Shown piece after piece: positions 2,348-52,625 of a stretch of DNA of 64,000 nucleotides. The DNA lies in the UHGV virus genome UHGV-0277313. The stretch is one strand, 5' to 3'. Each line of letters begins with the position of its first letter. The first letter of the stretch is position 1. The notes beneath the pieces are model-generated. The model was not told where the DNA came from and ran no database searches. It was given only the letters and a program-made list of their open reading frames with translations. Source of the stretch: a virus. Position numbers and translations under genes: made by a program.

Positions 2348-2608
2348 ATGAAACAGTTTTATCAGCGTTGGGCAATGGATTGCACAGTGGAAAAAGGAAC
2401 AGGACAATGGTGGGTGTTAACGGACCCCGAAGGAACTAAAACTTTGGTATCGTATGATACACCCGTCGTGCGTCAGTATAAAGACGGAACGATGGTTCGA
2501 TTTGTTGAGAATTGTTCAATGACAACATTTCAACACATCAGAAAGTGGTCAGGTTTAAGAGCAGACGAATTCCGCGAATTGCCGATTGTCCCTATTGAAA
2601 GAGGTTAA
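2348..2608 (+). CDS. hypothetical protein
   Basis: 86-aa ORF with SD GAAAGGGAAAAG upstream. Confidence 0.5.
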   Translation: MKQFYQRWAMDCTVEKGTGQWWVLTDPEGTKTLVSYDTPVVRQYKDGTMVRFVENCSMTTFQHIRKWSGLRADEFRELPIVPIERG

Positions 2609-2611
2609 ACA

Positions 2612-2800
2612 ATGCCGAATGTAAGTAAGGTAAGACAACTTGCACGACAAACACTGGAAATGATGCAAACTGATTTGACTGATGAAGAAAAAGAGGATTG
2701 CATTGATTACGCATGGACATTGAACGATTTGGGAATGTCTGAACGTGAAGCAGTGATTGCCGCGTGTAAAGAATTTGTTTTGAAAGAAAGGAGTTTCTGA
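2612..2800 (+). CDS. hypothetical small protein
   Basis: 62-aa ORF, tightly coupled to neighbours. Confidence 0.4.
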   Translation: MPNVSKVRQLARQTLEMMQTDLTDEEKEDCIDYAWTLNDLGMSEREAVIAACKEFVLKERSF

Positions 2801-3950: not shown

Positions 3951-5279
3951 ATGTCAAACAACCAAAACATGCACAAGGCAAAAACGGAAAAGAATGACGA
4001 GTTTTACACAAGAAGGGAGGATATCGAAAAGGAACTTAAAAATTACAAAGATTACTTTAAAGGCAAAAGAGTGCTGTGTAATTGTGATGACCCGTTTGAA
4101 AGTTACTTCTTTAAATTCTTTGCTTCGCAATTCAAAGAGTTGAAATTAAAAAAGTTAATCACAACAAGCTATTATGACAGCGCTATCAAAAAGCAGAATA
4201 TCAATATGTTTGATGTTGGCGCTTACGCTGTTGTTATGGACAAAAAGGCAGGTTTTTTTAAACAACGAACATATGATTTGCAAGATGTTGAATGCTGGTT
4301 GGAAGAACAAAAGAACCTTTCGATACAAGGATCAGATTCTGCTTTAAAGTCGTTGACGACAGGGGACTTTGCAAGTAAAGAATGTGTGAAGTTCCTTGAT
4401 GAAGCTGATATTGTTGTGACAAATCCGCCGTTTTCAAAATTCCGTGAGTTTGTTGCCTTGCTGATGGAACATAAAAAACAGTTCCTAATTATCGGGAATA
4501 TGAATGCAATCACATATAAAGAAATTTTCCCGTTGATTAAGGAAAACAAATTGTGGTTGGGATATGAATCACCGAAAGAGTTTGTACAACCTGATGGAAC
4601 AACTAAAAAGTTTGGTAACATTTGTTGGTTCACAAACTTGCCGACCGAGAAACGTGAAGAGTATTTGGATTTGTTCGAAAATTACAGTCCTGACAAATAC
4701 CCGATGTACGACAACTATCTTGCAATCAATGTTGACCGTGTGTCTGACATTCCGTGCAATGAATGGTTTATCATGACGGTTGGTGAAGACCGTTATAACA
4801 AACTGAAAGCGACGTATGGTGACGATTGCGTGCTGATTGATGGTGATGATGTTAATAAACAGTATCGCATCAAGGTTCGTAACATTGTCATGGGTGTTCC
4901 TATTACGTTCCTTGACAAGTATTGCCCAGAACAGTTTGAGATTGTATCATTCCGTAAAGGCGATAACGGTGAAGACTTAATCTTTACGAGAGAGAGAGAG
5001 AAAGAGTTCAATCGTACTTTCGAGTCCTTATACGACATCGATAGCAGGAGTGATCAAGAACAAAGAAGGATTGATAAATGGGAAGCCTACATACGCGAGA
5101 ATAACAATAAGAAAGGTGGTTTAACAAGAGAACCTATTGATTGTTTTCATGTGTTGTTAACAAATGGAAATTGTGCTTCACATGGTAAAGAAGTAAGGAG
5201 GATTGAGAATGAAAGCCCTTGTATTAATGGAAAGTGGCTTTATACCAGAATAACAATTCGTAAGAAACCTAAACAATAA
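3951..5279 (+). CDS. N6-adenine DNA methyltransferase (amino-MTase, NPPF motif)
   Basis: Motif IV VVTNPPFS; candidate AdoMet-binding region VLCNCDDPFESYF; 442 aa; SD GGGGAG upstream. Confidence 0.65.
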   Translation: MSNNQNMHKAKTEKNDEFYTRREDIEKELKNYKDYFKGKRVLCNCDDPFESYFFKFFASQFKELKLKKLITTSYYDSAIKKQNINMFDVGAYAVVMDKKAGFFKQRTYDLQDVECWLEEQKNLSIQGSDSALKSLTTGDFASKECVKFLDEADIVVTNPPFSKFREFVALLMEHKKQFLIIGNMNAITYKEIFPLIKENKLWLGYESPKEFVQPDGTTKKFGNICWFTNLPTEKREEYLDLFENYSPDKYPMYDNYLAINVDRVSDIPCNEWFIMTVGEDRYNKLKATYGDDCVLIDGDDVNKQYRIKVRNIVMGVPITFLDKYCPEQFEIVSFRKGDNGEDLIFTREREKEFNRTFESLYDIDSRSDQEQRRIDKWEAYIRENNNKKGGLTREPIDCFHVLLTNGNCASHGKEVRRIENESPCINGKWLYTRITIRKKPKQ

Positions 5280-5374: not shown

Positions 5375-6550
5375 ATGACGATGAAAATTACGAAAACCGA
5401 AATTGCAGTTCGCGATTTGGTGAAGAATTACAAGGAGGATAAGAAGACGCATGAAGTCGTTGGTTACGGCAAGAAGCTGAACATTCGTCCGAAGTATCAG
5501 AGGGAATTTGTTTATGAAGGCAAAAAGGAAAAACAGAAGTTCGCTGTTATTGAAACAGTGATGAAAGGTTTCCCGCTGAATACCGTTTATTGGGCAAAGT
5601 CTGATGAGGATGGATTCGATTGGGAAGTTCTTGATGGGCAGCAGCGTACAATTTCGCTTTGTCGTTTCTGTACAAATCAGTTTTCGATTGAGTTGGAAAA
5701 AGGTTTCCCGATGACTTTTGCGAACCTTTCAGAAGAAGACCAGAACAAGATTTTGGATTACAAGCTTGACGTGTATCAGTGCGAAGGAACTGATGCAGAA
5801 AAGCTTGAATGGTTTAAAGTCATTAACATTGCAGGTGAAAAACTGTTTCCGCAGGAATTGAGAAATGCGGTTTATGCAGGTGAATGGTTGACCCGTGCAA
5901 AAGAATTGTTTTCCAAACGGACAGGTTGGGTGTATCGCAAATACAAAGACCTTTTGTCTGGAGAAGTCATTCGACAGGATTACCTTGAAACGGCATTGAG
6001 TTGGATTGGTGCGAAGGAAGGCAAGAGTATTGAGGAATACATGGCAGCGCACCAGTTTGACGAAGTGAACAAAGAAGGAACACCTGAAGGATTCCCGTTG
6101 TTCAAATATGTGAAAGATGTGTTTGATTGGGTTGACAAGACATTCCCGACAGCGCGGTCATATTTGAAAGAAGCGAAGAAAGTGGAATGGGGTTTGTTGT
6201 ACAATCGGTTTGGTACAGAGTCGCCTGACATTGAAGAAATCAATGATGAGGTCAACCGCCTGATGATGGACAGTGATGTTCAGAAAAAATCAGGGATTTG
6301 GGAATATGTGTTATCGAATGATGAGAGTGCATTGAACATTCGCACGTTTGATGACAATACCAAACGGGAAGTATATGAACGCCAAAATCACAAATGTCCG
6401 TATTGTGTACGGGAAGGAAATGACAAGGAGTACAACATCGAAGATATGGAAGCTGATCATATAACGCCGTGGTCACAGGGCGGGAAGACGACAGCTAATA
6501 ACTGTCAGATGTTGTGTAAGAAACACAATCGAAAGAAGAGTGACAAGTAA
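5375..6550 (+). CDS. DUF262 (ParB-like, GmrS-type) domain fused to an HNH nuclease; GmrSD/type IV restriction-like
   Basis: N-terminal DGQQRTISL (DUF262 DGQQR box); C-terminal HNH: HKCPYCV...ADHITPWSQGG...NNCQMLCKKHN. Confidence 0.75.
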   Translation: MTMKITKTEIAVRDLVKNYKEDKKTHEVVGYGKKLNIRPKYQREFVYEGKKEKQKFAVIETVMKGFPLNTVYWAKSDEDGFDWEVLDGQQRTISLCRFCTNQFSIELEKGFPMTFANLSEEDQNKILDYKLDVYQCEGTDAEKLEWFKVINIAGEKLFPQELRNAVYAGEWLTRAKELFSKRTGWVYRKYKDLLSGEVIRQDYLETALSWIGAKEGKSIEEYMAAHQFDEVNKEGTPEGFPLFKYVKDVFDWVDKTFPTARSYLKEAKKVEWGLLYNRFGTESPDIEEINDEVNRLMMDSDVQKKSGIWEYVLSNDESALNIRTFDDNTKREVYERQNHKCPYCVREGNDKEYNIEDMEADHITPWSQGGKTTANNCQMLCKKHNRKKSDK

Positions 6551-20960: not shown

Positions 20961-21740
20961 ATGATTGAATTTAAAGGTTCACAAAAGGCATTCTTCAAGG
21001 CATATCCGAAGGATAAAAGAAGTCTGAATGAAGTGTATCGTCTGATTTCCTATAACATCATTACTAAACAGGAAACCAAAACATGCTATCAGTTCATTGG
21101 TTCGTTGGGTGAAAAGAACTTTAAGAAAGTTGAAACACCTGAAGATGTTACAGTAACTGAAACTGTTACCGTTAATACAAAAGATACAAATGATACGAAC
21201 GTATCTGATGTACAAAAGGTAGATGATTTAGAATTTGCTAATCCTGATGATGACGTTAAAGAGAAGACTGAAGAAGTAACAGAAGTCAGTGAAGCAAAGG
21301 TGGAAGAAAAGACTGAAGCTGTTAAAGAAGAAAAGCCGAAAAAGAAAACAATCACCGCCAAAAGAAAAGAATTGTTGGACGCTTTTGATGTGTTGAGTGG
21401 AGTTATCGGCATTGAAATTGACGCCGATTGCCCTGTGGATTTCTTTGCATTGATGAATGTTATATCTGAATTCGAACGTGGTGACTTTAGTACTGAACCT
21501 TCGACATATGTTGATATGTTCAAGTATTTCCTGAACAAGTATCCTAAACACGCTAAAGAAATTCAGGTATGCATTGATTATCTGGAAGAAGTTTATAACG
21601 ACATTAGACAAAAGAAAAGCAGCTATGATAAACATGTTTATAACTTCTATAGTCATTGCGGTTTAGGTGCCGAAAAGGAGAAGAAGGAACAACGAAAAAG
21701 TAAAAGTCAAAGCAAGAGTCAGAGGGTACGTAAACGATGA
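20961..21740 (+). CDS. hypothetical protein, MIEFxGSQKxFFKAYPK N-terminal family (paralog 2); acidic/lysine-rich centre
   Basis: MIEFKGSQKAFFKAYPKDKRSLNEVYRLI...YQFIGSLGEKNFKKVE. Confidence 0.6.
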   Translation: MIEFKGSQKAFFKAYPKDKRSLNEVYRLISYNIITKQETKTCYQFIGSLGEKNFKKVETPEDVTVTETVTVNTKDTNDTNVSDVQKVDDLEFANPDDDVKEKTEEVTEVSEAKVEEKTEAVKEEKPKKKTITAKRKELLDAFDVLSGVIGIEIDADCPVDFFALMNVISEFERGDFSTEPSTYVDMFKYFLNKYPKHAKEIQVCIDYLEEVYNDIRQKKSSYDKHVYNFYSHCGLGAEKEKKEQRKSKSQSKSQRVRKR

Positions 21741-22215: not shown

Positions 22216-22455
22216 TTGCGGATTATGGCAACGTTTGAAGAAATGACCGATGAAGAACGCAAAGCCGTTTATGATGAAACATACAAAGACATAGATGGTT
22301 GTTGCTATCCCTGGGAAGAACCTTTTGAAGCTATGAATGGGGTTTGTCCTGATTGCGGGAGGGCCACAACAAATGGCAAATGTGTTTGTGGCTGTTGCTA
22401 TTCTGGGTGTGTTTGTGATACTTGCGGGGCGTGTCCGTGTGATATGTCTTGTTGA
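22216..22455 (+). CDS. small cysteine-rich protein (metal-binding-like)
   Basis: C-terminal half CPDCGRATTNGKCVCGCCYSGCVCDTCGACPCDMSC. Confidence 0.5.
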   Translation: MRIMATFEEMTDEERKAVYDETYKDIDGCCYPWEEPFEAMNGVCPDCGRATTNGKCVCGCCYSGCVCDTCGACPCDMSC

Positions 22456-22469
22456 ATGGAGTGCGAATT

Positions 22470-22691
22470 ATGACAACGTGGTTAGTAGCATTTAAAGAGA
22501 GAACCTTTCTTACAATGGTTGAAGGTGGTTGCATAAAAACTTCTTTGATCAGTGAAACAATAAAAACAGAAATAAATAATTGTTTTGAACCAACAGAAGA
22601 GGGAATTAAAATTTTCAAGAAGTTCCACGAAGGCGTAGATGGACATTATTCGATTGAAATAGAAGTTTTATCCTGGTCTGAAATAAAATAG
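22470..22691 (+). CDS. hypothetical small protein
   Basis: ATG after GGAGTGCGAATT. Confidence 0.5.
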   Translation: MTTWLVAFKERTFLTMVEGGCIKTSLISETIKTEINNCFEPTEEGIKIFKKFHEGVDGHYSIEIEVLSWSEIK

Positions 22692-22693
22692 GA

Positions 22694-22990
22694 GTGCGGA
22701 CTATGAACATAGAAAATGAATTAAAACACAAAGCTTGTAACATAGACTTATTCACAAAAAAGGCGGTTGAAGATGTTGCGGCTTTAGGGGAGTACACCGG
22801 TTTGTTGCTTGACCTGTCAAATCAAATTCAAATGGAAATGGAGATGTTGCGTGAGCAGAATAAAAAACTTAAAGAAACTCTGGAGTTCTATGCTTCCGGA
22901 CAGCACATCGACTCAATTTCAACCGGAAGTTCATATTCAATTAGAATTGAAGACGGAACGAAAGCTAAAGATTGCTTAAAGGAGATATGA
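22694..22990 (+). CDS. hypothetical protein
   Basis: ATG after GGAGTGCGGACT; ends KAKDCLKEI. Confidence 0.5.
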   Translation: MRTMNIENELKHKACNIDLFTKKAVEDVAALGEYTGLLLDLSNQIQMEMEMLREQNKKLKETLEFYASGQHIDSISTGSSYSIRIEDGTKAKDCLKEI

Positions 22991-23003
22991 ACATGATTAC
23001 ATT

Positions 23004-23577
23004 TAACGGATCTCAAAAACAATTTTTTAAGGCTTATCCAAAAGAAAAGAGAAGCTTGAAAGAAACATATAAGCTTATCAATTCTGCTGGTGAAATTGAA
23101 TACAAATTTATCGGTGGTCTTGGTGAGAAATGTTTCAAGAAGTTCGTAAAGAATGATACTGAGTTGAAAGAAATAGAAAACATTAAAAAGAAAGAAACCA
23201 AACCAAAAAGAAAAATACTACTAAAATGGGAAGAAAAATGGGAAGAAAAATATGGTAGAAGCTTTGATGAAATGTGGAGCGAAATGGTGTGGGAACATGG
23301 TTTCACTACATCGAATGAAGATGCGTATTCTTGTTTAAAAGATGCATATGATAATATACAGGATATCCTGACAGATGAAGAAAAAGTATGTTGTGAACAT
23401 ATTCTTGAAATATTCAAAGTTTTTGGGAAACTTCCAACAGAAGATTACTATGACTTTTTTGTAAAGGTATCAAAAAGAATAAAAAAATCTAAGATAAAGG
23501 AAAAATGGGATAAAGCTTGTGTAAGTTATGTTTACTATTATTGGGATTATCAAAACTATCTTGAAAGTAGTTATTAA
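23004..23577 (+). CDS. hypothetical protein, MIxFNGSQKxFFKAYPK N-terminal family (paralog 3)
   Basis: MITFNGSQKQFFKAYPKEKRSLKETYKLI...YKFIGGLGEKCFKKFV; ATG nine nt after AAGGAG. Confidence 0.6.
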
Positions 23578-23598
23578 TAAAAGAAAAGGAGGCTGAAT

Positions 23599-23799
23599 AT
23601 GAAGAAATGTAAAAATTGTTGCGGAAACGTCATTGATATTGTGGAAAAGGTGCGAACTATCATAACGCCTGTTGGACACAATGAACGGCCTTTTGGTAGT
23701 GTATTTGTAGCAAGATGTCCAAATTGTCGTTCGGAATCTTCACGCTATTTGACGGAAGAAGAAGCTGAAACAAAAGGCGTTGCCGAGGTGTTTGAATAG
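23599..23799 (+). CDS. small zinc-ribbon protein
   Basis: CKNCCGN...CPNCRS forms a 4-Cys pattern; SD AAGGAGG. Confidence 0.5.
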   Translation: MKKCKNCCGNVIDIVEKVRTIITPVGHNERPFGSVFVARCPNCRSESSRYLTEEEAETKGVAEVFE

Positions 23800-23810
23800 G
23801 TAGGTAAATC

Positions 23811-23993
23811 ATGAGTAATCAACGAGATATAATTATATGGAAGCTCGACAAAGACCTTGCTAAAGCTCGCTTAGCTTTGGCTAAGATACATGTGATAATA
23901 GACAAGATTCCCTTTTGGAATGCAGATATAGCAGAAATTGAAAAAGTTCTGCAGGAGTTTTTTGAAGATGATGAAAAGGCTGAAAGGAAATGA
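23811..23993 (+). CDS. hypothetical small protein
   Basis: 60-aa ORF. Confidence 0.45.
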   Translation: MSNQRDIIIWKLDKDLAKARLALAKIHVIIDKIPFWNADIAEIEKVLQEFFEDDEKAERK

Positions 23994-24307
23994 ATATGAA
24001 TTTTAACATTGGTAAACCTTTAGATGAAGTGTTAAAAGACATCGCGAACATTGCTAGAAGTTATGACGATGATAAAAAGAAGCTTCCGTTGAATAATAAG
24101 TTTCTTCAAAAGGTAACAGAATACATTGCTAATTTCACAAAAGATGAACAGTGGACTGATGCCAAAAGAGACTTGTTGTTCGATTGTTTGATTTCGCAAG
24201 CTGCATGTGAACGTCATTTTTATGATTTGATTAATGAACCGGATCTAGCAATCTTTTATTATCATATTCAATGTTCTTTATCAACTGTGAAATGTAATAT
24301 GGTATGA
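23990..24307 (+). CDS. hypothetical protein
   Basis: ATGA-coupled ORF. Confidence 0.5.
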   Translation: MNMNFNIGKPLDEVLKDIANIARSYDDDKKKLPLNNKFLQKVTEYIANFTKDEQWTDAKRDLLFDCLISQAACERHFYDLINEPDLAIFYYHIQCSLSTVKCNMV

Positions 24308-24630
24308 AGAAACTATTGACATTGGTCTTTTTTGTTGGTATACTATGTGTATCAAATAAAGCAAGGGGTGGATGGACATCTATTCAATCTGAAATGTTTT
24401 TTGCAGGGTGTAGTGATGAATGTATCAGTGCAAGTGAGACAGTATCGGATTTAGTGAATGTACATTCATATTGTGAATGTTTCTGTCATGAGATACTTCA
24501 TAATTCTAAATCATTTTATCAAGCGAATCAATTCGTTCAGAATGCTTTAGATGGTGTTGAGAAGGAAAGAAAGCGATTCGATGAAATGATGTATCAATGT
24601 TTTGTCATTAATCAAAAAGGAGAGTTTTAA
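24304..24630 (+). CDS. secreted Cys-rich protein (signal peptide)
   Basis: N-terminal MKKLLTLVFFVGILCVS looks like a signal peptide; 8 Cys in the mature part. Confidence 0.5.
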   Translation: MKKLLTLVFFVGILCVSNKARGGWTSIQSEMFFAGCSDECISASETVSDLVNVHSYCECFCHEILHNSKSFYQANQFVQNALDGVEKERKRFDEMMYQCFVINQKGEF

Positions 24631-24732
24631 ATGACAACAGAGTTTAAAGAAATGCTGATGTTTATCGGCAAGTTCAGTCTTGCATCAATTGCAGGTGGTG
24701 TTCTTGTTTCGGCAATCATTTGGTATTTGTAA
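24631..24732 (+). CDS. small single-TM peptide (33 aa)
   Basis: MTTEFKEMLMFIGKFSLASIAGGVLVSAIIWYL; missed by the ORF track. Confidence 0.3.
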   Translation: MTTEFKEMLMFIGKFSLASIAGGVLVSAIIWYL

Positions 24733-24758
24733 GAATAATGTGAAAGGAAGAAAAAGAG

Positions 24759-25304
24759 ATGTTTAAGATTTGGAAATTAAAACAGGAAAAACGGGAAAGA
24801 AAAATGGTACTGGAACATCGCGAAAAGATGCATAATGATTTCGTGAAGAATGAATATCAGTGTTTCGAGATGGTTCGTAATCGTGGTAAACAGTTCAGTA
24901 AAGCTATTGATGCTTTGAATATATGTTTCGTAGAAATGTGTTGGGCAGTTTATCAAAAGAACGAAAGTTTTAATGACATTTATGCATTCATCAAAGCTTT
25001 ATATAATTATACACACACATCCGATCTTGTCAAAGATATTGTCGAGCTGAATGACAAATTGTTTAAAGTTGAAAGTTTGATGGAGAAACATCTTCGTGAA
25101 ACTTCTGAACTGAAAACGAAAAAGTTGAAAGCTATTGATATTTCTGAACCGGCTGAATTGGCTGAATTGCAAGAATGGGAAAATAAACGGGAAGAAGAAT
25201 ATAATGACCTGGCAACATTGTTTCATGAAATCGATTCTTCTGTAACAGCTAAACGTTCAGCTTGTGTTGACGAAATCTTTCGTATCTTTACCCGCATGAA
25301 ATGA
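24759..25304 (+). CDS. hypothetical protein
   Basis: 181-aa ORF after GGAAGAAAAAGAG. Confidence 0.5.
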   Translation: MFKIWKLKQEKRERKMVLEHREKMHNDFVKNEYQCFEMVRNRGKQFSKAIDALNICFVEMCWAVYQKNESFNDIYAFIKALYNYTHTSDLVKDIVELNDKLFKVESLMEKHLRETSELKTKKLKAIDISEPAELAELQEWENKREEEYNDLATLFHEIDSSVTAKRSACVDEIFRIFTRMK

Positions 25305-25412
25305 CTTTAAGACTCTAGGATAGCTTCTGGGATGATTTAGGTCTAGTTATACCTGAAACATTGTCCGGCTATTCTAGAGCCTTTATTTTGTCTTTATGAA
25401 AGGATTAGACAA

Positions 25413-25583
25413 ATGAAGAAGAAGTTGTTGTTGAGTGTAATGATTGTTATGACATGTTTTGTCACTGATGCCTATGCACAACGCGGGTGTTGCAGTTGGC
25501 ATGGTGGTGTAAGTGGTTGTACTATCAGTGGCCGTGTCATATGCAATGATGGTACGCTGTCACCGAGTTGTACGTGCAGATAG
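25413..25583 (+). CDS. secreted cysteine-rich peptide (56 aa precursor; about 34-aa mature part with 7 Cys)
   Basis: MKKKLLLSVMIVMTCFVTDAYA | QRGCCSWHGGVSGCTISGRVICNDGTLSPSCTCR; AGGATTAGACAA upstream; missed by the ORF track. Confidence 0.45.
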   Translation: MKKKLLLSVMIVMTCFVTDAYAQRGCCSWHGGVSGCTISGRVICNDGTLSPSCTCR

Positions 25584-25598: not shown

Positions 25599-25922
25599 AT
25601 GTACCTGATTAACTTCTGGACACATATGTTTGACTTCAAAGGCAATATTGGGGTTTTTGAATTCTGGATTCCTATTGTCTTTTATCACTTTGCTTTTTAT
25701 GTAACAGGATTTTTACCTGAAAATTTGTTTGAAGTCGTCGTGTCTTTTTACATCATTGGATATCTGATTGCTTCTATTTCTTCCGGTGTTCGTAGATTGC
25801 ACGATATTGACTTTTCAGGGTTCTGGATCTTTTTAGGTTTTCTTCCTGTATTTAATGTGGCTTTGACTATGATGTGGCTTTTGCCGTCTAGTGTAGTAAA
25901 AGAAAATTGTTGCATAGAATAA
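25599..25922 (+). CDS. DUF805-family inner-membrane protein
   Basis: RRLHDIDFSGFW resembles the DUF805 RLHDxGxSGWW box; 3-4 TM segments. Confidence 0.55.
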   Translation: MYLINFWTHMFDFKGNIGVFEFWIPIVFYHFAFYVTGFLPENLFEVVVSFYIIGYLIASISSGVRRLHDIDFSGFWIFLGFLPVFNVALTMMWLLPSSVVKENCCIE

Positions 25923-26271: not shown

Positions 26272-26637
26272 ATGGCACATTTAAGTTTTTGTTCTAATCT
26301 GTTCATCTATTTTGTGATCGGATTTTCAACATACAAATTAGGGGTTGAAACAACTTGGTCTATTGGTTTGTTTTATCTGTCTTCAGTGTTGTTGATTATC
26401 ATGTGTGTTGAACGTGAATTGGGTGCTAAAAGGGAAGATGAATTAGAAAGGTTGTTGAAAAAGAACAACATCGACTTTTATGATGAAGACGAAGAAAACA
26501 TTAATGCACTTGAAGAAGCTGTTACTCAATTGAAAAATTTGAGAAAAACATTTAAGAAGAATAAAGAAGCAGATAAAGTTAAAGATGATAAAGATGAAGT
26601 AACGTCTGTATCTGAAGAAACTAAACAGTCAGAATAA
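26272..26637 (+). CDS. membrane protein with a charged C-terminal tail
   Basis: 2 TM segments then KREDELERLLKK...; SD AGGAGGAG. Confidence 0.5.
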   Translation: MAHLSFCSNLFIYFVIGFSTYKLGVETTWSIGLFYLSSVLLIIMCVERELGAKREDELERLLKKNNIDFYDEDEENINALEEAVTQLKNLRKTFKKNKEADKVKDDKDEVTSVSEETKQSE

Positions 26638-26721: not shown

Positions 26722-27012
26722 ATGTTTGACATGTCTATTTACTCTTGGTTAAAAGCTATGACATTAAAAGCAGGTCATTTGCTTAATAAAGATAATGTTC
26801 GTTTTACTGGATGGACAACTGCAAGCTCGACTTTATATTTTCGTTTGTATTATCAATACGGGAATTTTCTCAGTTATGATTATATTCTTGCTGATCCTTT
26901 GATACAACAGCTGTCTATCGAACAAATATTGAGTGATGGGATTGTTTTTAAATACGAAGATAATTTCTTAACGATAGAAGAAATAGGAAACGAAGCGTTC
27001 AATAAAATTTAG
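26722..27012 (+). CDS. hypothetical protein, C-terminal-motif family (ends IGNEAFNKI)
   Basis: ORF. Confidence 0.55.
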   Translation: MFDMSIYSWLKAMTLKAGHLLNKDNVRFTGWTTASSTLYFRLYYQYGNFLSYDYILADPLIQQLSIEQILSDGIVFKYEDNFLTIEEIGNEAFNKI

Positions 27013-27029: not shown

Positions 27030-27329
27030 ATGCGAATAGGCGATGATAAAATTCTTGATATCTTAAATGAAAAAGCAGCAGATATCATCATTGAAGGGTG
27101 TAAGGTTCATTTCACTAAACTGATTCAATTTAATCTTAATCAATGGTACACTGTCTTTAATTACAAAAGAGGAAAAGGCTGCTGTGAAGAGTCAGATATT
27201 ATCTATATCGATCATGCGATTATGGATACTGATGTTGATGTTTTAGAAAGAGGTGCGACTACATTTAAATTTAAAAATAATTATTTAACAATAAGTAATA
27301 TAGGAAAAGAAACCCTTAACAACATTTAA
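27030..27329 (+). CDS. hypothetical protein, C-terminal-motif family (ends IGKETLNNI)
   Basis: ORF after AAAGGAAATAGC. Confidence 0.55.
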   Translation: MRIGDDKILDILNEKAADIIIEGCKVHFTKLIQFNLNQWYTVFNYKRGKGCCEESDIIYIDHAIMDTDVDVLERGATTFKFKNNYLTISNIGKETLNNI

Positions 27330-38140: not shown

Positions 38141-39043
38141 TTACTGTTTATCGATTTGATGTTGTTTAAGATATTCACGAATTTCATCATCAAACGCAAA
38201 AGACAGTGCTGTTTTATTTTCATCAGAAACAGCATCAACATCAGCACCTTTTTCAACTAGCAATTTGACAGTATCAAAATCATTATGAAGTGTCGCATTC
38301 ATCAATGCCGTCATCCCTGTAGATGAACGAGCATTAACGTCAGCACCGTTTTCTAATAACATCTTAATGATATCTATAGAGTCTTGACGGCAAGCAAAGA
38401 TTAAAGGAGTGTCGCCTTCCCAATCTGTATTATCAATATCAGCACCAAGTTCTATAGCTTTTTGTGCAAGTTCAAGTTTATTGAGAATGCAGCTTCCAGT
38501 TAAAAGACGATTCGGGTCTTTAATTTCCGCATTGTGTTTGATTAATGTTTCAATAATATCATAAGCGTATTCGTATGCACCTTCTGATAACAGAACGTCA
38601 GCAGTTGTCATTCCGTTTATATTAGTAATGTTTGTATCAGCACCATGTTCTAATAACCAATTTATAGTTTCAATATCACCATAACCGAGACATGTGATAT
38701 ATAAAATTGTTTCGCCGCTTTTATTTTTAAAATTTAAATCAGCCCCGTGTTCATATAATAATTGAGCAACTTCAAGATTGTCAAGATAGATAGCACGAAA
38801 CAAAGGAGTTTCACCAAATTGGTCTGTCATGTTGACATCAACTTGAGGGTTATCTTCCAGAAGTTGTTTAATTGTTTCGAAGTCATTTGAGAACAGTTTG
38901 ATTTTCGTATCATCTGTTTCATCTTCTTCAATCATTTTTATAACCATTTCTTTTAGTTTGTATTTAACTGAACGTTTAAAAGATTCGAGTTTTAAATTTT
39001 CATCATTCATGTATTTAGTCCTTGTGTCAATAAAACGATGCAA
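38141..39043 (-). CDS. ankyrin-repeat protein (about 7 repeats)
   Basis: Repeated G-TPL--A------V--LL--GAD-N motifs, e.g. GETPLFRAIYLDNLEVAQLLYEHGADLNFKN and GDTPLIFACRQDSIDIIKMLLENGADVNAR. Confidence 0.85.
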   Translation of the reverse strand: MHRFIDTRTKYMNDENLKLESFKRSVKYKLKEMVIKMIEEDETDDTKIKLFSNDFETIKQLLEDNPQVDVNMTDQFGETPLFRAIYLDNLEVAQLLYEHGADLNFKNKSGETILYITCLGYGDIETINWLLEHGADTNITNINGMTTADVLLSEGAYEYAYDIIETLIKHNAEIKDPNRLLTGSCILNKLELAQKAIELGADIDNTDWEGDTPLIFACRQDSIDIIKMLLENGADVNARSSTGMTALMNATLHNDFDTVKLLVEKGADVDAVSDENKTALSFAFDDEIREYLKQHQIDKQ

Positions 39044-41092: not shown

Positions 41093-41120
41093 AAAAATCT
41101 AATTGATTAAGGACACGCTA

Positions 41121-43391
41121 ATGAAATATCTAATTTTGCTTCGGGGTCTTCCTGGTTCTGGTAAAAGTTATTGGATAAAAGAAAACAAATTAGAAGATTA
41201 TACTATTTCTTCTGATAATGTTCGTTTGTTGTTTGCAACACCGTCTATTCCTTTTCAGGCTTGTTATAAGGATAGAGGAATTTCACAAAAGAATGACAAA
41301 GAGGTTTGGGATTTAATACATTCTTTAGTTGAACGTCGTTTAATGGAAGGCATGACAACTATCGTTGATGCAACACATTTGACTGTTAAGTCTATTAATT
41401 ATTACAAAAGCTTTTGTGCAAGTAATAATGTACGTTGTATCGTATTGGATTTTAATGTTAGCCTGGAAAGTGCTATTAACAATGATTTGTTAAGAAAAGG
41501 CACTTGTCGTTATGTAGGTTGTCAGATCATTAAAATAATGAATGACAAAAAAGAAGATGTGCCTAAATGGGTTGATTATACAACTGATAAAGAGCATGTT
41601 GTCAAGCTGTTTAATGACTGTATAGACGCGGTTGATTACAATGAGAAGTATGATAGCGTTGTAATCTTCGGTGATTTGCATGGTTGTTATGAACCTTTAA
41701 AACAGTGGTTTGACAAACATCCTGTTAACGACAAAACGAAATATATCTTTTGTGGTGATTATGAAGATAGAGGTATTCAACATAAAGAGTTGTTTGATTT
41801 TCTTTTAGAACATCGCAAAGATTTTAATTTCAAATTCTTAAAAGGCAATCATTCTTGTCGTTTGTTACAGATAGCTGAACGTGATAAAGATTCTATTCGT
41901 TATCCGGAATACTATAATACGTTTGAACAAATGAAAGATTTTGATCCTATTGAACTGAAAAAGTTTGTTCGGGATCAAGATGATATGGTTTACTTTACAT
42001 TTCGTAATAAAAACTTTTGTGTATCACATGGTGGTATTAGTTGTCTTCCGACTTTAAAGTTGAATAGTAGTGAATACATAAAAGGTCACGGAACATATCA
42101 AATGTCAAATGATGTGGATAATGATTTTATGTTCAATTCTTCTATTGAAGGTGATAACATTTATCAGGTACATGGTCATCGCAACGTTACAAATAGTGAT
42201 ATTCAAGTATGTGATCGTTGTTTTAATTTGGAAGGAGGAGTTGAGTTCGGTGGTGAATTACGAATTCTTCAGATTGATAGTGAAGGTAAATGTATACTGG
42301 ATTCTATTAGAAATACTGTTTTTAAAGAATTGACGGAAGGTTCGAAGATTGTCAATGAGTTTAAGTATTCTTCATTGATTAGAAAGTCGCAAAACCCAAA
42401 CGGTATTAGTTCTTATAACTTTAATCGAGACGCTTTTTTTGATAAAAAGTGGAATAGCTTGACGTGTACCGCAAGGGGCTTGTTTGTATATGATGATACA
42501 GATAAAGTTGCAGCAAGGTCTTTTAACAAATTCTTTAATTTGAATGAAACTAGTACTTCGAAATTAGATTATATTGTGAAGAATTGGTGTGGCGTCACGA
42601 ATGTTTATAAAAAGGAAAACGGATATTTAGGTATCATTTCTGTTGATGTTCGTGATAACAGTTTCATTTTAGCATCGAAAAGTCGTACTGATAAAGAGTT
42701 CGCAACGAATATTAGTAGAATCTTTAATGAAAAATTGTCAGAAGAACAACAGAACAATTTGAAGAAATGGTTATTGAAGGATGTGGATAAACATCAAGGT
42801 AATGCATATTCTTTAGTTGTTGAAGTAATTGATCCAATTAACGATCCGCATTTTGTTCAATATGATAAAGATGATATTGTTGTTTTGGATGCATTCGTTA
42901 ATGACTTTAATGAAAAAACTGTTTCATATGATGAACTGATTTCATTACATGACTTAACAGGTTTGACAATAAAAGAAAAGATTTGTGAGACGTGTGATCT
43001 AAAGACAACAATTCATGAACTTTGTAATACCAAAGATCATATCGAAGGATTTGTTTTAGAAGGGCATGATTATAATGGCAAGACTGTTCGTGTGAAGATT
43101 AAAACAAAATGGTACTTGATGTGGAAGAAGTTCAGATCAACAGGTGATTTCGATGAACGATTCGACATTAAAGATTTTTTGACAGTTGAACAACAAAAAT
43201 ACGCCAAACAAATCTATAGCCGAACAAAACAATTGATCGATTTACGTAATGGAGATACAGTTAGTACTGATGGTTCAATAAATGTAAATGATGAAATTGA
43301 CAATTATGTTATGTTTATTTATAGAGATTTGATTGGTGATTCGCGGATTAATATACCGAAAATTATACAATCTGTTGAAAATGTGAAATAG
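41121..43391 (+). CDS. polynucleotide kinase / metallophosphatase / ligase-like RNA-repair enzyme (CthPnkp-like)
   Basis: P-loop LLRGLPGSGKSYW; calcineurin-type phosphatase motifs VVIFGDLHGCYEPL, FCGDYEDRG, KGNHS; ligase-like motif I YKKENGY in the C-terminal third. Confidence 0.7.
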   Translation: MKYLILLRGLPGSGKSYWIKENKLEDYTISSDNVRLLFATPSIPFQACYKDRGISQKNDKEVWDLIHSLVERRLMEGMTTIVDATHLTVKSINYYKSFCASNNVRCIVLDFNVSLESAINNDLLRKGTCRYVGCQIIKIMNDKKEDVPKWVDYTTDKEHVVKLFNDCIDAVDYNEKYDSVVIFGDLHGCYEPLKQWFDKHPVNDKTKYIFCGDYEDRGIQHKELFDFLLEHRKDFNFKFLKGNHSCRLLQIAERDKDSIRYPEYYNTFEQMKDFDPIELKKFVRDQDDMVYFTFRNKNFCVSHGGISCLPTLKLNSSEYIKGHGTYQMSNDVDNDFMFNSSIEGDNIYQVHGHRNVTNSDIQVCDRCFNLEGGVEFGGELRILQIDSEGKCILDSIRNTVFKELTEGSKIVNEFKYSSLIRKSQNPNGISSYNFNRDAFFDKKWNSLTCTARGLFVYDDTDKVAARSFNKFFNLNETSTSKLDYIVKNWCGVTNVYKKENGYLGIISVDVRDNSFILASKSRTDKEFATNISRIFNEKLSEEQQNNLKKWLLKDVDKHQGNAYSLVVEVIDPINDPHFVQYDKDDIVVLDAFVNDFNEKTVSYDELISLHDLTGLTIKEKICETCDLKTTIHELCNTKDHIEGFVLEGHDYNGKTVRVKIKTKWYLMWKKFRSTGDFDERFDIKDFLTVEQQKYAKQIYSRTKQLIDLRNGDTVSTDGSINVNDEIDNYVMFIYRDLIGDSRINIPKIIQSVENVK

Positions 43392-44242: not shown

Positions 44243-45538
44243 ATGGTTGATAAAGTTTGTAAATTGTCAAGCGGTGCAACGTTCCTGTATAATCAGCAAG
44301 AAGATGATTTGGCATCTTTTGCTATCTTGTTTGATGTAGGTTCGATTGATGAACAGGAAAATGAGAAAAAAGGTATTGCACATTGCCTAGAACATATGAT
44401 GTTCAAAGGAACTAAAACAAAAACATCAGCTGAATTTCTTGATTTGATGGATAAGTTGGGTGTTGAATCAAACGCGTTTACTTCGTTTGATGTAACTTGT
44501 TATCATGGAACGTTTCATAATGATGATACAAATGATGTCATTAATCTATTCGGTGAAATGATTACAGAACCCCGTTTTGATTATAAAGATTTGGAATTAG
44601 AAAAAGGTGTAATTCATCAAGAAATCATTATGGGTGAAAACGATCCGCAAAGCCGTGCACAACAGTATGGTTTGGAAAACATTTTTAAAGACACACCTTT
44701 TGCAAGGCCTGTTATTGGTTATTGGAAAGATGTGAATTCTATTACACCTGATGATTTGCGTTCATTTATGTACAATCATTATACACCGTCTAATTGCATT
44801 ATTGCCTATTCAGGAAAAACGTCTTTTAATGATGTTAGAAAAATTGTAGAAGACTTTACAAAAAAATTATCTAATAATACTGTTAGATTTGAACGTAAAG
44901 ATGTTAAAGTTAATTTAGGTGCTGAGACTGTCATTATCGAAGATAAAGAGACTAAACAGAATACTATTATGATTGGCGGTGCTTTATATAATAGTAATAC
45001 AGTTGATGGTGTAGCTTGCATTCTTGCTAAAGCTGTTCTTTCTGGCGGTCTGGCAAGTCGTTTGGTTAAACGAATCCGTGAAGAATTAGGCTTGTGTTAT
45101 TACATTGGAATTACAAACGTTCCTTCTATGAAAGATTTTGTATGTCCTTTAATCGTTTGTATTACTGATAAAGATACAAAAATGGTGGAAATGGAAATCA
45201 AAAAGGTTATTGCCAAAGCGATCAAAGAAGGTTTCGAAGATGAAGAAATCAAAACTGTAAAGAAACATGGCGAACTTGTTTGTATCAAATCAAATATTGA
45301 TCGTGATGATTATGCTGTAACAATGTGTACAAATTATCAAGGTACAGGTAAGTTGCCGTCACAGCTATTGAAAACTAAAGTGTCAAGGTTTAAGAAAGCA
45401 TCAAAGAAATCTGTTAATGAAGCAGTTGATAAGTTGTTTTGTGAAACAATTTCAGTTCATGTTGTCAAACCTATCAAAAAACAGAATGCTTTTAAACGGT
45501 TCTTCAAACTGGTGTTTGACAGATTGAATGAAGAATAA
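44243..45538 (+). CDS. M16-family (pitrilysin/insulinase-like) zinc peptidase
   Basis: Inverted zincin motif GIAHCLEHMMFKGT (HxxEH); 431 aa. Confidence 0.75.
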   Translation: MVDKVCKLSSGATFLYNQQEDDLASFAILFDVGSIDEQENEKKGIAHCLEHMMFKGTKTKTSAEFLDLMDKLGVESNAFTSFDVTCYHGTFHNDDTNDVINLFGEMITEPRFDYKDLELEKGVIHQEIIMGENDPQSRAQQYGLENIFKDTPFARPVIGYWKDVNSITPDDLRSFMYNHYTPSNCIIAYSGKTSFNDVRKIVEDFTKKLSNNTVRFERKDVKVNLGAETVIIEDKETKQNTIMIGGALYNSNTVDGVACILAKAVLSGGLASRLVKRIREELGLCYYIGITNVPSMKDFVCPLIVCITDKDTKMVEMEIKKVIAKAIKEGFEDEEIKTVKKHGELVCIKSNIDRDDYAVTMCTNYQGTGKLPSQLLKTKVSRFKKASKKSVNEAVDKLFCETISVHVVKPIKKQNAFKRFFKLVFDRLNEE

Positions 45539-48236: not shown

Positions 48237-48328
48237 GGAAATGTGGATGAGTGGTTTAAATCAGCGGTTTGCTAAACCGTCGGGCATAGAAATATGTCCC
48301 GCAAGTTCGAATCTTGCCGTTTCCGCCA
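48237..48328 (+). tRNA. tRNA-Ser (anticodon GCT), class II
   Basis: Acceptor GGAAATG/CGTTTCC; anticodon loop TTGCTAA; long variable arm CGGGCATAGAAATATGTCCCG; T-arm GCAAGTTCGAATCTTGC; discriminator G then CCA. Confidence 0.8.
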
Positions 48329-48355
48329 AAAGTTTCTGTAGAAGATACAGGTTAC

Positions 48356-48449
48356 GCCTTCGTCGTTCAATGGTTAGGACACTCGGCTTATACCCGAGCG
48401 AGCAGCTGATATCTGCGAAATCACAGTTCGAATCTGTGCGGAGGTACCA
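48356..48449 (+). tRNA. irregular tRNA-like gene (94 nt), identity unresolved
   Basis: Good T-arm CACAGTTCGAATCTGTG and an acceptor with G-U pairs ending ACCA; two candidate anticodon hairpins (CTCGG-CTTATAC-CCGAG and GCAG-CTGATAT-CTGC); does not fold as a canonical cloverleaf. Confidence 0.35.
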
Positions 48450-48481
48450 ATTTTAATTTGCATTTTGAAAGTTGGGTAGAT

Positions 48482-49312
48482 ATGCAATATTTGACAAAGC
48501 CTTTTGTAAAATGGGTCGGTGGTAAAAAACAACTTCTTGAGAAATTAGGATCTTGTATGCCCAAAGATTACAATCGTTATTACGAACCTTTTATTGGTGG
48601 TGGAGCTTTATTGTTTAATGTTCAACCTAAAGATGCTGTCATTAATGATACAAACAGTCAGTTAATAAATGTTTATAATCAATTAAAAACAAACATTGAA
48701 GATGTTATAAAAACGGTGAATACTTTAGATAGTAAAATGTGTAATGAAGATTATTATCTAGAAATTCGTGACCGTTATAATTCAAAAATCAAATCAAAAG
48801 AGTTAGATGCTGAATGTGCTTCTTTAATGATTTGGGTTAACAAACATTGTTTTAACGGGCTATATAGAGTCAATTCAAAAGGGTTGTTTAACGTCCCGTA
48901 TAACAATAAAGTAAATGGCGTTTCAATTGATGAATGTAATTTACGAAACATCAGCAATTATTTAAATTTAAATAAAGTTGATATTCGTGAAGGTGATTTC
49001 GAAGCCGCTTGTTCCGATGTGAAAAAAGGCGATTTGGTATATTTTGATTCGCCGTACGTTCCAGTAAGTAAAACAGCAAACTTTACAAATTATACAAAAG
49101 ATGGTTTTAGTTTAAATGATCACAAACGTTTGGCTAAATTGTTTTGCACTCTGGATAGTTTAGGTGCGTATATTATGTTAAGCAATAACGATGTTCCTTT
49201 GGTTCATGAGTTGTATAGTCAATTTAATGTGACTTCTGTTGATGCCCGTCGTGCTGTCAATAGAGATGCAACAAAAAGGAAAGGTAAGGAAGTAATCGTT
49301 ACCAATTTTTGA
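48482..49312 (+). CDS. dam: DNA adenine methyltransferase (Dam-like, alpha class)
   Basis: KWVGGKKQLL, FxGGG motif YYEPFIGGGALLF, catalytic DSPY; the ORF may extend to TTG 48458. Confidence 0.85.
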   Translation: MQYLTKPFVKWVGGKKQLLEKLGSCMPKDYNRYYEPFIGGGALLFNVQPKDAVINDTNSQLINVYNQLKTNIEDVIKTVNTLDSKMCNEDYYLEIRDRYNSKIKSKELDAECASLMIWVNKHCFNGLYRVNSKGLFNVPYNNKVNGVSIDECNLRNISNYLNLNKVDIREGDFEAACSDVKKGDLVYFDSPYVPVSKTANFTNYTKDGFSLNDHKRLAKLFCTLDSLGAYIMLSNNDVPLVHELYSQFNVTSVDARRAVNRDATKRKGKEVIVTNF

Positions 49313-49325
49313 TTAAACAGATAGT

Positions 49326-49412
49326 GGATGGGTCGCATAGCGGCAATTGCTGGGGACTGTAAATCCCCCGCCTGAAAAGGCTTCGTTGGTTCGAGTCCAA
49401 CCTCATCCACCA
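49326..49412 (+). tRNA. tRNA-Tyr (anticodon GTA), class II
   Basis: Acceptor GGATGGG/CTCATCC (one G-U); D-arm GCATAGCGGCAATTGC; anticodon stem GGGGA/TCCCC with loop CTGTAAA; long variable arm; T-arm GTTGGTTCGAGTCCAAC; ACCA. Confidence 0.75.
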
Positions 49413-49460
49413 AAAATTTTTAAAAAGATGAAAAAAAGTTCTTGACAATTAGCATTACAT

Positions 49461-49489
49461 TTGCTATAAATAATACATCAAGACGAGAT
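49461..49489 (+). promoter_or_regulatory. strong promoter copy B (AAAAAGTTCTTGACAattagcattacatttgcTATAAA)
   Basis: Duplicate of the 47904 promoter; TTGACA N17 TATAAA. Confidence 0.55.
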
Positions 49490-50335
49490 ATTAAACATTG
49501 TAAATAAGAAACAGCCAAATGAAAAGGCCTTTACGTGGCTTGGCTGATAAGTAGCTTTCTTCATTTAGTGAATTTAGTGAAACCAACTTTTTCATTGTTT
49601 AATATCTCATATAACTTGAACTGTATAAAAACAGTACGGCTGTATAGACATAAGATGATTCTGCCTATATAGTTTCCGTCATCAGTCTGATTACCTTTTC
49701 GTGGTTTGACGGATAAGTAGCGACCTTCAACTGTTTATTTTCAAGAGCGAAGCATTGATTATAAACTGTCGCGAAACTAAAGTTCTGACATGTAACAGTT
49801 GATGAAATTTCCGCATCGGTTGTTACAATATGATAATGGTCTTGACGAATTATAACCCCAATTTAACGTACGGTAATGCGGGAAAACATAGTTGTTATAA
49901 TGACTCAAGATCTTTCAAGCTATTTGTTTAGCCGTTTTCAGGAAAGTTTTGGGGTGAAAAACTTCCTTGTTATTATTTGTAAAATATGCCTTGATTTTTA
50001 ATTTTCTATAACTTCTAATAAAGTAGAATAGGAAATTTTAAAAGGTTTTAAAATTAAGTTGGAAGATTTGTGATTTTGTTATACAGAGTGACTGAATCAA
50101 TGGAAGAAAGAGGTCGTTTTGTTTAGATTGCAAACCCAATTTGATTTTAAATAAAAAGAAAATCTGAGTGAAATAAAGGTTTTCTCCTTAGAAATAAGGT
50201 TCTTTTTAGACTTAAGTCTTCTAAATTTATATAAAGTTTATATTTGTTTAGATAACTGAGTTATTTTATCGCAGTTTATTGTTTTAGACTCAAGTTCTAA
50301 ACATTTCAGATCGAATCTGAATGCTGCTTCTAATT

Positions 50336-50400
50336 CAATCCTTTATTCAAGGATTGTTTCCGGTGATTCGCGATAGTCAGTACCGGTACAAAATCTGACA
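50336..50400 (+). ncRNA. two-hairpin structured RNA element, copy 1
   Basis: CAATCCTT-TATT-CAAGGATTG, then TTTCCGGTGA-TTCGCGATAGTCAG-TACCGG...CTGACA; copy 2 at 54415 keeps both stems through compensatory changes. Confidence 0.4.
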
Positions 50401-50718
50401 TCTAGATAAATTGAAATATGTTTATCTGTTAGGTTCCTAAAACCTATCATCAAAATTTAGGCGTCAAGATTGTTTCTTGCAGGTTTCTTGTTCACCTGAC
50501 AAAATGAACAAGCAGTGCAAACGCTGTAGAATCGTTGGCGGGTTTGTCGTTGCCCATATACCGACCAGAAATGATACTTGCTGATATTCTGATAGAAGTT
50601 CCGCTAGACTGATGATCTTCATGTAAAGTGTGTCAAGCTTTACATTATGACATTCTTAATTGAATGCTGTCAAAGGTTTTGTGTATTGTACCTGCGTAGC
50701 AAAACAATACACTTTTAA

Positions 50719-50794
50719 GCCGAAATAGCACAGTTGGTAGTGCAGTTGATTTGTAATCATCAGGTCGTGGGTTCAAATCCCTCTTTCGGCACCA
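50719..50794 (+). tRNA. tRNA-Thr (anticodon TGT)
   Basis: Acceptor GCCGAAA/TTTCGGC; D-arm GCACAGTTGGTAGTGC; anticodon loop TTTGTAA (one stem mismatch); T-loop TTCAAAT; ACCA. Confidence 0.65.
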
Positions 50795-50995
50795 GTTTAT
50801 TTAGGTGTTTTGCAAAGTTTAATCTCATTCGCTCGTTAAACTTTCCTTTCAAAATTCTCATCATCTCCAATTTTGATAAATGCAAAACAGTTCAATTCGT
50901 TTGTTTACCTTCACGTGGTTTTGAATGTAAGTAACTTAAGGTTTTTAACAACTGCCGTAGATCGTTTACTTAAGTGAAACTAAATAACAAACAAT

Positions 50996-51082
50996 GCCCT
51001 TATGATGGAATCGGTAGACATAACAGATTCAGAATCTGTTGGAATTACTTCCGTACCTGTTCGAGTCAGGTTAGGGGCACCA
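50996..51082 (+). tRNA. tRNA-Leu (anticodon CAG), class II
   Basis: Acceptor GCCCTTA/TAGGGGC; anticodon stem ACAGA/TCTGT with loop TTCAGAA; long variable arm; T-arm ACCTGTTCGAGTCAGGT; ACCA. Confidence 0.8.
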
Positions 51083-51085
51083 TTT

Positions 51086-51179
51086 GGGTGGTTGGCAGAG
51101 TCTGGCTTATTGCAACGGTCTTGAAAACCGTCGAACATAGGAATATGTTCCGTGTGTTCAAATCACACACCACCCGCCA
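51086..51179 (+). tRNA. tRNA-Ser (anticodon TGA), class II
   Basis: Acceptor GGGTGGT/ACCACCC; anticodon stem ACGGT/ACCGT with loop CTTGAAA; long variable arm CGAACATAGGAATATGTTCC; T-arm GTGTGTTCAAATCACAC; GCCA. Confidence 0.8.
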
Positions 51180-51185
51180 ATTTAT

Positions 51186-51278: not shown

Positions 51279-51353
51279 ATTTTTTAAACAAGCCTTTACA
51301 CGCGTCATGATGACGATAGTCCAATATACATTTGAAGGCTTTTTTAAAAATTG

Positions 51354-51443: not shown

Positions 51444-51470
51444 AATTTTTTCAATTTTCTTGAATTTTAA

Positions 51471-51544: not shown

Positions 51545-51560
51545 TTTCCTACATTTTTAA

Positions 51561-52614: not shown

Positions 52615-52625
52615 TGACTAACTAT

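Follow-up and report, generated by a model that had tools for sequence, protein, structure and literature searches.

Legionella Dis2 (Lpg0823) is a periplasmic protein stapled by disulfides and located on the outer-membrane side of the Dot/Icm machine. The structural report describes five disulfides with clear density in its lobes and locates Dis2 near the outer membrane (PMC8486379); elsewhere Dis2 is reported to contact the lipoproteins DotC, DotD and DotK, is counted as a dispensable accessory, and is described as Legionellales-specific, without obvious homologs (PMC12716638). Here, we analyze a 64,000-nucleotide stretch of viral DNA (UHGV-0277313; “the window” below means this whole stretch) in which a 3.4-kb segment encodes five small open reading frames (ORFs), A to E, four of them (A, B, C, and E) Cys-rich. 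ORF E very probably encodes a phage copy of a Dis2-like exported mini-domain. The segment as a whole is best explained, with a probability that we put at about 65%, as two sets of genes, in which ORF E would be a Dis2-like exported binding module. All five ORFs were found where the initial annotation placed them, and they are listed here with the parts of ORF E (a slash marks the cleavage point):

A, 22225-22455 (76 residues from ATG) or 22216-22455 (79 residues from TTG), + strand: acidic N-terminus, CPDCG knuckle, and Cys-rich tail.
B, 23599-23799, + strand: 66-residue protein, zinc-ribbon-like by its Cys pattern.
C, 24304-24630, + strand: 108-residue protein, exported as judged from its signal peptide MKKLLTLVFFVGILCVSNKA, with a predicted helical mature part.
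D, 24631-24732, + strand: 33 residues, with a hydrophobic, transmembrane (TM) stretch at residues 15-33.
E, 25413-25583, + strand: 56 residues with seven Cys, one in the signal peptide and six in the predicted mature 34-mer.
Signal peptide of E, MKKKLLLSVMIVMTCFVTDAYA, 25413-25478, + strand: Sec-type, predicted cleavage AYA/QRG.
Mature domain of E, QRGCCSWHGGVSGCTISGRVICNDGTLSPSCTCR, 25479-25583, + strand: a single Dis2-lobe-like, six-Cys mini-domain with three short β-strands.

The link to Dis2 comes from both sequence and predicted structure. In a phmmer search of all PDB sequences, ORF E matched a single protein, Dis2 (PDB 7MUC, 7muc_AN; E-value 5e-14), and aligned to both of its tandem lobes; a profile of the E family also found Dis2 (E-value 4.4e-9). 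Our template-free AF2 (AlphaFold2) model of E has three short strands and a mean pLDDT (predicted local distance difference test) score of 79, rising to about 88 over the domain. Its top Foldseek match among 350,542 PDB chains was again 7muc_AN, with a root-mean-square deviation of 1.1 Å over 32 columns, 47% identity, and a probability of 0.99; the tiny size of the domain limits the Foldseek E-value of this match to 0.11, and all other matches had E-values above 5. The two proteins have in common the domain motif GCC[SL]x[HM]GG...CN[DN]G..S..C, the predicted fold, and a signal peptide that ends just before the domain: the AFA/AD site of Dis2, homologous to the cleavage site of E, lies immediately before residue 39/40, the first to be modelled. 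In the aligned lobes of Dis2 there are 6 + 4 Cys, which equals the five reported disulfides, and by homology to these lobes three disulfides are expected from the six Cys of E. Dis2 differs in belonging to a secretion machine and in consisting of two lobes in tandem, of which the second has just four Cys. E, by contrast, consists of one lobe and is phage-encoded, with no type IV secretion system (T4SS) genes nearby. Since the window is phage DNA and no T4SS family was found in the subset of window ORFs that was scanned, we regard E as a domain homolog and not as an orthologue of Dis2.

ORF E joins a known, functionally uncharacterised family, and the connection of this family to Dis2 is the most useful by-product of our analysis. 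E matched phrog_6000 (E-value 9.5e-8) and had 84 close homologs in a large protein collection. The family alignment shows a sharply conserved 32-residue domain, RGCCSWHGGVxGC-x(2-5)-GR-x2-CxDGTxSPSCTC, with 13 invariant positions. Searched with the family profile, 1.8 billion cluster representatives yielded 1542 clusters at E-values of 1e-3 or below, and motif scans located the domain in 26 IMG/VR contigs and at least 230 species genomes, some of the latter evidently being mis-binned phage contigs. These genomes belong to uncultured Bacilli, “Tenericutes,” Patescibacteria, Muribaculaceae, Campylobacterota, Gammaproteobacteria including Legionellales, and Desulfovibrio. The family found here spans many phyla as well as phages, whereas Dis2 has been called Legionellales-specific. 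Dis2 is thus built from a domain that recurs in phages and across many bacterial phyla, in over 1,500 protein clusters, and its function becomes open to wider study because the single-lobe versions are small and tractable. With PHROG 6000, the 26 IMG/VR contigs, the records of Haemophilus phages HP2 and S2, and Helicobacter prophages, the initial description of such peptides as unusual phage cargo was overstated. Some E homologs carry a precomputed match to PF27300, and NCBIfam PRK10040-type scores were 21-38 bits, far under the equivalog cut-offs of 93-168 bits. Nothing was found in the literature on the motif, PF27300, or PRK10040, and DUF3761 had a single incidental mention. DUF3761 (PF12587) resembles the family in its G-x-C-S-x-H-G-G-V motif and its exported context, but E had no match to it at E-values up to 1, and homologs scored 8-14 bits over the motif only; with the gathering threshold of 29 bits reached neither by E nor by its homologs, membership of E in DUF3761 was rejected.

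The Cys pattern of the family points to disulfides. Among 85 family members, the domain has six Cys in 53, eight in 31, and seven in one. The two additional Cys (positions 34 and 45) appear together in 31 of 32 cases, and such covariation is the signature of an added disulfide. Judging from the even Cys number (6 or 8) in 84 of the 85 homologs and the five disulfides of the homolog Dis2, E is almost certainly disulfide-bonded, in line with the disulfide-rich character that had been proposed for it.

ORF E is a genuine coding gene under purifying selection. We recovered related phages through individual proteins, on metagenomic contigs of 74-314 kb: L001 (178 kb), L010 (194 kb), L012 (74 kb), and, as a much more distant relative than these three, L093 (IMG/VR, 314 kb). 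Counts of lineages out of five below refer to the window and these four contigs. All four related lineages have ORF E at the same syntenic position, but in L010 and L012 it was missed in gene calling. The ratio of nonsynonymous to synonymous substitution rates (dN/dS) was 0.08 against L093 (at a synonymous divergence, dS, of 0.95), 0.23 against L012, and 0.38-0.40 against L001 and L010. In L093, E is 85% identical and its neighbours are 28-67% identical; this identity above that of the neighbours, together with dN/dS, makes E the most constrained gene of the block. The leader of E reads MKKK-LLLSVMIVMTCFV-TDAYA/QRG, with MKKK as n-region and a 15-residue hydrophobic core, and it obeys the (-3,-1) A-x-A rule; our hydropathy scan places the hydrophobic core within residues 3-20. 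We assigned the cleavage site from the (-3,-1) rule and from homology. The phage homologs retain the DAYA/QRG site, and every E homolog inspected has a hydrophobic N-terminus. Both the conservation in related phages and the (predicted) signal peptidase site that the initial annotation assumed are thus borne out, and the precursor at 25413 exists as it described; the predicted mature 34-mer, by contrast, has six Cys and not the seven it gave. We infer that E is exported, that its leader is removed, and that its six Cys form three disulfides.

ORFs C, D, and E belong to a conserved, envelope-directed block. The gene order 105-residue protein, C, D, 181-residue protein, E, (DUF805), 121-residue protein, 96-residue protein, 99-residue protein, and, on the opposite strand, 216-residue protein is kept in L001, L010, L012, and L093, with the 121-residue gene lacking in L012. 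The neighbours of E within this block are as follows:

181-residue protein between D and E, 24759-25304, + strand: no hydrophobic segment.
DUF805 multi-pass inner-membrane protein, 25599-25922, + strand: 15 nucleotides downstream of ORF E.
121-residue protein, 26272-26637, + strand: two N-terminal hydrophobic segments and a charged tail; the downstream limit of the envelope-targeted block.

In the hydropathy scan, C and E have classical n-h-c signal peptides and D has one TM segment; export or membrane signals occur in these three alone of the five ORFs. C has seven Cys, one of them in the signal peptide, and its six mature Cys are invariant in homologs, which are confined to this phage group. 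It is syntenic in L001, L010, L012, and L093, with dN/dS of 0.15-0.36. Its AF2 model, built from only four sequences, is helical with a pLDDT of 61.6, and neither fold nor sequence gave a match in the PDB (Foldseek matches all had E-values above 2 and are meaningless; phmmer gave none). The ATG of D directly follows the stop codon of C, with GGAG 8 nucleotides upstream, an arrangement that suggests translational coupling of D to C. D is 100% identical in L010 over 32 aligned residues, 91% in L012, and 41% in L001; its dN/dS against L012 is 0.14, from few sites. L093 has a 38-residue equivalent that likewise starts at the stop codon of the C homolog. Because the coupling is conserved, it suggests that C and D may act together at the membrane. 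The 181-residue protein is syntenic in the relatives and fast-evolving, with 28-92% identity; its dN/dS of 1.7 against L010 derives from few changes. The DUF805 ORF matches PF05656 (47 bits against a gathering cut-off of 25.7; E-value 3.9e-12) and phrog_12855, annotated “moron ... membrane protein,” and has several hydrophobic segments. The 121-residue protein is 94-98% identical in L001 and L010 and 48% in L093. Of additional note, L093 has an extra ORF (4860-5213) between its D and 181-residue homologs, with a lipoprotein-type signal (...AIGVLTGC/VAYY); by this signal it would be a further envelope protein in the block.

A and B have different features. The TTG start of A at 22216 is doubtful; the likelier start is the ATG at 22225, which gives 76 residues and is preceded by an AAGGA ribosome-binding site. 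A has 14 Cys in total, 12 of them in the last 36 residues. The hydropathy scan found no hydrophobic segment and no signal peptide in either A or B. A matched phrog_13157 weakly (E-value 1.1e-4) and had no sequence match in the PDB; only six homologs were found, all on phage-like contigs, and one of them has an internal deletion between two GCCY motifs. A tblastn search of phages gave no match for A or C, and A, C, and D had no significant match in Pfam, NCBIfam, or PADLOC. B has five Cys arranged as CxxCC-x31-CxxC, and its best Pfam matches, to zinc-ribbon families, are sub-threshold (14-16 bits against cut-offs of 25-29). Its one relative, with 78% identity, is in the viral contig L119. Since there is no export signal, the Cys of A and B most likely bind metal (zinc) in the cytoplasm, and the CPDCG knuckle of A adds to this view; we consider both to be probably cytoplasmic metal-binding proteins. 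Separately, A was considered as a precursor of a ribosomally synthesised and post-translationally modified peptide, with a SCIFF-like Cys-rich C-terminus, and was rejected: there is no adjacent maturase, and nothing links A to the M16 peptidase that lies about 20 kb off.

The observation that the segment is Cys-rich holds, with corrected counts: the Cys-rich ORFs are real, and three of the reported numbers were wrong (the tail of A has 12 Cys and not 13, C has seven and not eight, and mature E has six and not seven). A (17.7% Cys) and E (12.5%) are the top two ORFs of the window, which has a mean of 2.5%. Among the roughly 130 ORFs of the window, four of the seven most Cys-rich are among the 10 of this region (post-hoc hypergeometric P of about 6e-4); an ORF at 50734 that competes in this ranking overlaps a tRNA gene and is spurious. 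That these four lie within 3.4 kb is what speaks for reading the five ORFs as one co-functioning cassette of Cys-rich peptides. We hold such a cassette to be highly improbable. The export signals divide the ORFs, C and E having them and A and B not, and there is no sequence similarity among the four Cys-rich products. Inheritance divides them in the same way. L001, L012, and L093 have kept C, D, and E but lack A and B, whereas in L119 homologs of A and B lie about 0.4 kb apart, B downstream and an 84-residue paralog between them, without C or E. The A-to-C interval is moreover a site of TnpB insertion and paralog turnover; in L010, the A homolog is truncated at its 3' end by a TnpB insertion, which marks the small-ORF region as a TnpB insertion target. 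The word “cluster” in the initial annotation is therefore misleading, A and B being probably cytoplasmic, unrelated to C and E, and not co-inherited with them. From the split in export signals and the separate inheritance, we distinguish two independent sets: the facultative, cytoplasmic A and B, and the conserved envelope-directed block. The 3.4 kb are part of a variable small-ORF region of an uncultured large phage.

For ORF E itself, three other readings have to be weighed against a Dis2-like module. E is small, predicted to be exported, and disulfide-rich, a membrane protein follows it in the window and likewise in L010 and L093, and homologs show weak, sub-threshold Pfam matches to Conotoxin and Antimicrobial10; it could on these grounds be a Sec-dependent bacteriocin-like or toxin peptide that acts on neighbouring cells, with the DUF805 protein as immunity factor. 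The Conotoxin and Antimicrobial10 matches, however, have E-values of 0.07-0.34, far below threshold, and DUF805 adjoins E in only three of the five lineages, is absent after E in L001 and L012, and adjoins no other family member. The leader is Sec-type, about 95 family loci have no transporter, maturation enzyme, or recurrent immunity gene, and the domain is used as a secretion-machine subunit and as the N-terminal module of surface proteins of 150-430 residues, which fits binding and not killing. The bacteriocin-like nature that had been suggested for the peptide is thus quite improbable. The knottin likeness suggested with it fares worse. Six Cys in 34 residues and small β-strands are compatible with an inhibitor cystine knot, and lobe 2 of Dis2 lacks Cys 3 and Cys 6 together, as would a protein that has lost the C3-C6 pair present in knottin connectivity. 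But the Foldseek search returned only Dis2, with no knottin among the other matches, and the first two Cys of E are adjacent. An adjacent first pair (loop length 0) falls outside knottin spacing, and we judge this fold extremely unlikely for E. Metal binding by a Cys/His module is suggested by the invariance of His30, Asp46, and all Cys among the 85 homologs and by the CSxHGGV motif, common with DUF3761 though sub-threshold. Here the evidence of Dis2 is opposed: the accessible part of the structural report gives it five disulfides with strong density and mentions no metal (PMC8486379), and the His is replaced by Met in lobe 1 of Dis2 and by Lys in the HP2 homolog. Together with the even number of Cys, their gain in pairs, and the inferred export of E to an oxidising compartment, this makes a metal site unlikely indeed.

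Returning to E as a Dis2-like exported module, we would suggest the following scheme for its role. E would be exported through its Sec leader, cleaved after AYA, and its six Cys oxidised to three disulfides. Outside the cytoplasmic membrane, the rigid mini-domain may then bind a protein or some other component of the infected cell's envelope. Rather than being a diffusible toxin, E could in this way serve as an accessory or conversion factor that helps, for instance, to exclude superinfecting phages or to remodel the envelope. The reading as a binding module is drawn from the docking of Dis2 on outer-membrane lipoproteins and from the position of the domain after the signal peptide of surface proteins; the reading as an accessory or conversion factor is drawn from the HP2 homolog in a lysogeny operon and from bacterial copies in variable islands. 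In this phage, E sits among small membrane and exported proteins. We put forward a small accessory factor that binds an envelope protein as the most likely role, but as a tentative assignment only. Several points weigh against it. No family member has a known function, and deletion of Dis2 has only subtle effects (PMC12716638). Clustering of neighbours across about 95 family loci gave no conserved partner gene, and a scan for promoters and terminators did not rise above background (19 sites against 17.6 expected). The invariant His30 and Asp46 might instead mean metal binding. Finally, the destination of E would depend on the kind of host, being the periplasm if the host is diderm and the wall or exterior if it is monoderm.

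Phage envelope accessory proteins, such as morons, lysogenic-conversion proteins, and superinfection-exclusion proteins, for example T4 Imm and Sp, are small, exported or membrane-bound, encoded in variable early or accessory regions, dispensable, and act on the host envelope. The likeness of E to morons and to T4 Imm/Sp would be one of function. A more speculative and rather unlikely idea is that the Dis2-like domain serves as a horizontally mobile “clamp” on outer-membrane lipoproteins or envelope machines, which the single-lobe phage form would block or repurpose. If this were so, it could target, for example, a receptor complex, a peptidoglycan-anchoring lipoprotein, or an apparatus for conjugation or type IV secretion, and E would represent a new kind of superinfection-exclusion or anti-conjugation factor. 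As it stands, our analysis reveals no new mechanism or kind of system. It gives a structural identity to a small, poorly annotated phage gene, uncalled on several related contigs, and E may mark a recurrent class of exported phage accessory proteins.

Other phages carry comparable genes. Haemophilus phage HP2 (NC_003315.1, record positions 2486-2668, minus strand; 2498-2680 in our locus L120) has a 60-residue ORF, MKKLISTVLIASSFFMVANMADARGREPCSGKKGGVSHCSGGKFICNDGSVSRSKQICRR, that is absent from its GenBank annotation, and the phage S2 record has a match at the same coordinates. This ORF is a divergent E-family member. It starts at the stop codon of cI, between cI and orf1, in the pL lysogeny operon cI-X-orf1-int; the slot after cI is a classical place for conversion or exclusion genes, and the position fits expression in lysogens. 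The HP2 ORF and the other PHROG 6000 and NCBIfam PRK10040-type small hypothetical proteins resemble E in their length of about 55-60 residues, in a signal peptide followed by a single Cys-rich domain, and in being phage-borne. The HP2 ORF differs in its divergent motif (CSGKKGGV, four Cys) and in belonging to a lysogeny operon of a temperate phage, whereas E is in an apparently lytic-type large phage. In a Helicobacter prophage, an eight-Cys form adjoins an apparently exported DNase.

The family is carried by mobile elements and prophages; its bacterial members are found in variable islands, in the company of integrases, XRE regulators, abortive-infection or defence genes, and RHS genes. Many Bacilli and Patescibacteria genomes have the domain directly after the signal peptide of surface proteins of 150-430 residues, a position that would place it at their distal, ligand-facing end. 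These larger proteins contain G5 domains, Cys-containing repeats, Thr-rich linkers, or a coiled coil with a C-terminal anchor. In loci L015-L068 (uncultured Bacilli, Muribaculaceae, and “Tenericutes”), tandem repeats of about 22 residues, YGCTDxxAxNYNxxAxxDDGSCxY, follow the Dis2-like domain and are themselves often followed by a G5 domain; the repeat matched no Pfam family in the scan that was run. The only recurrent neighbours in the roughly 95 loci were XRE regulators, integrases, and one small secreted protein (7 loci). The last, the sole recurring non-regulatory neighbour, is an exported Tyr/Arg/Asn-rich protein of about 90 residues (...YRVRGYTRSNGTYVNSYYRTSPNY...) within 2.5 kb of the Dis2-like gene; it lies at 6260-6535 in L004, where it is directly downstream of that gene, at 2814-3089 in L081, and in five other loci.

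The window is the DNA of a large uncultured phage without a close cultured relative. It encodes rIIA, a polynucleotide kinase-phosphatase-RNA ligase fusion, an EcoRI-like methyltransferase, and a GmrSD/HNH protein, and additionally an M16 peptidase, TnpB, an ankyrin-repeat protein, and 13 tRNA genes. A megablast search of 6 kb against INPHARED gave no match, and rIIA and the RNA ligase are only about 32% identical to those of phages of unrelated hosts. This large phage is apparently of lytic type; the scan of a subset of window ORFs found no integrase. Further features of the window, with the TnpB genes of two relatives, are as follows:

EcoRI-type adenine methyltransferase (E-value 3e-102) and adjoining GmrSD_N + HNH nuclease, 3951-5279 and 5375-6550.
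Ankyrin-repeat protein, 300 residues, 38141-39043, - strand.
Fused kinase-phosphoesterase-RNA ligase, 762 residues, 41103-43391 (phrog_8238, E-value 4e-146).
M16 (insulinase-type) peptidase, 44243-45538.
tRNA array of 13 genes, 48237-55178, + strand: Ser, Ile, Tyr, Thr, Leu, Ser, Phe, Trp, Pro, Asn, Leu, Arg, Gln.
IS605-family TnpB, 58400-59482 in the window, 10207-10920 in L010, and 8383-8877 in L012.

The TnpB genes of the window and of its relatives sit at different places. Paralogs also occur within the region: a 259-residue protein (20961-21740) and a 201-residue protein (22972-23577) share an N-terminal stretch of about 60 residues, FKGSQKAFFKAYPKDKRSL..., and the neighbouring 96-residue (26722-27012) and 99-residue (27030-27329) proteins share about 34% identity over their C-terminal halves. 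Several mechanically called ORFs within the tRNA array, such as 50734-50934, overlap tRNA genes and are spurious. The M16 peptidase and the ankyrin-repeat protein are unusual genes for phages, and the methyltransferase and GmrSD_N-HNH pair resembles a phage-borne methylase with a modification-dependent nuclease. The G+C content is 0.35-0.41 in the first 26 kb, falls to 0.27-0.32 at 26-48 kb, and is higher again over the tRNA region. The + strand holds nearly all window genes, and the GC skew, positive across the whole window, fits this almost uniform coding direction.

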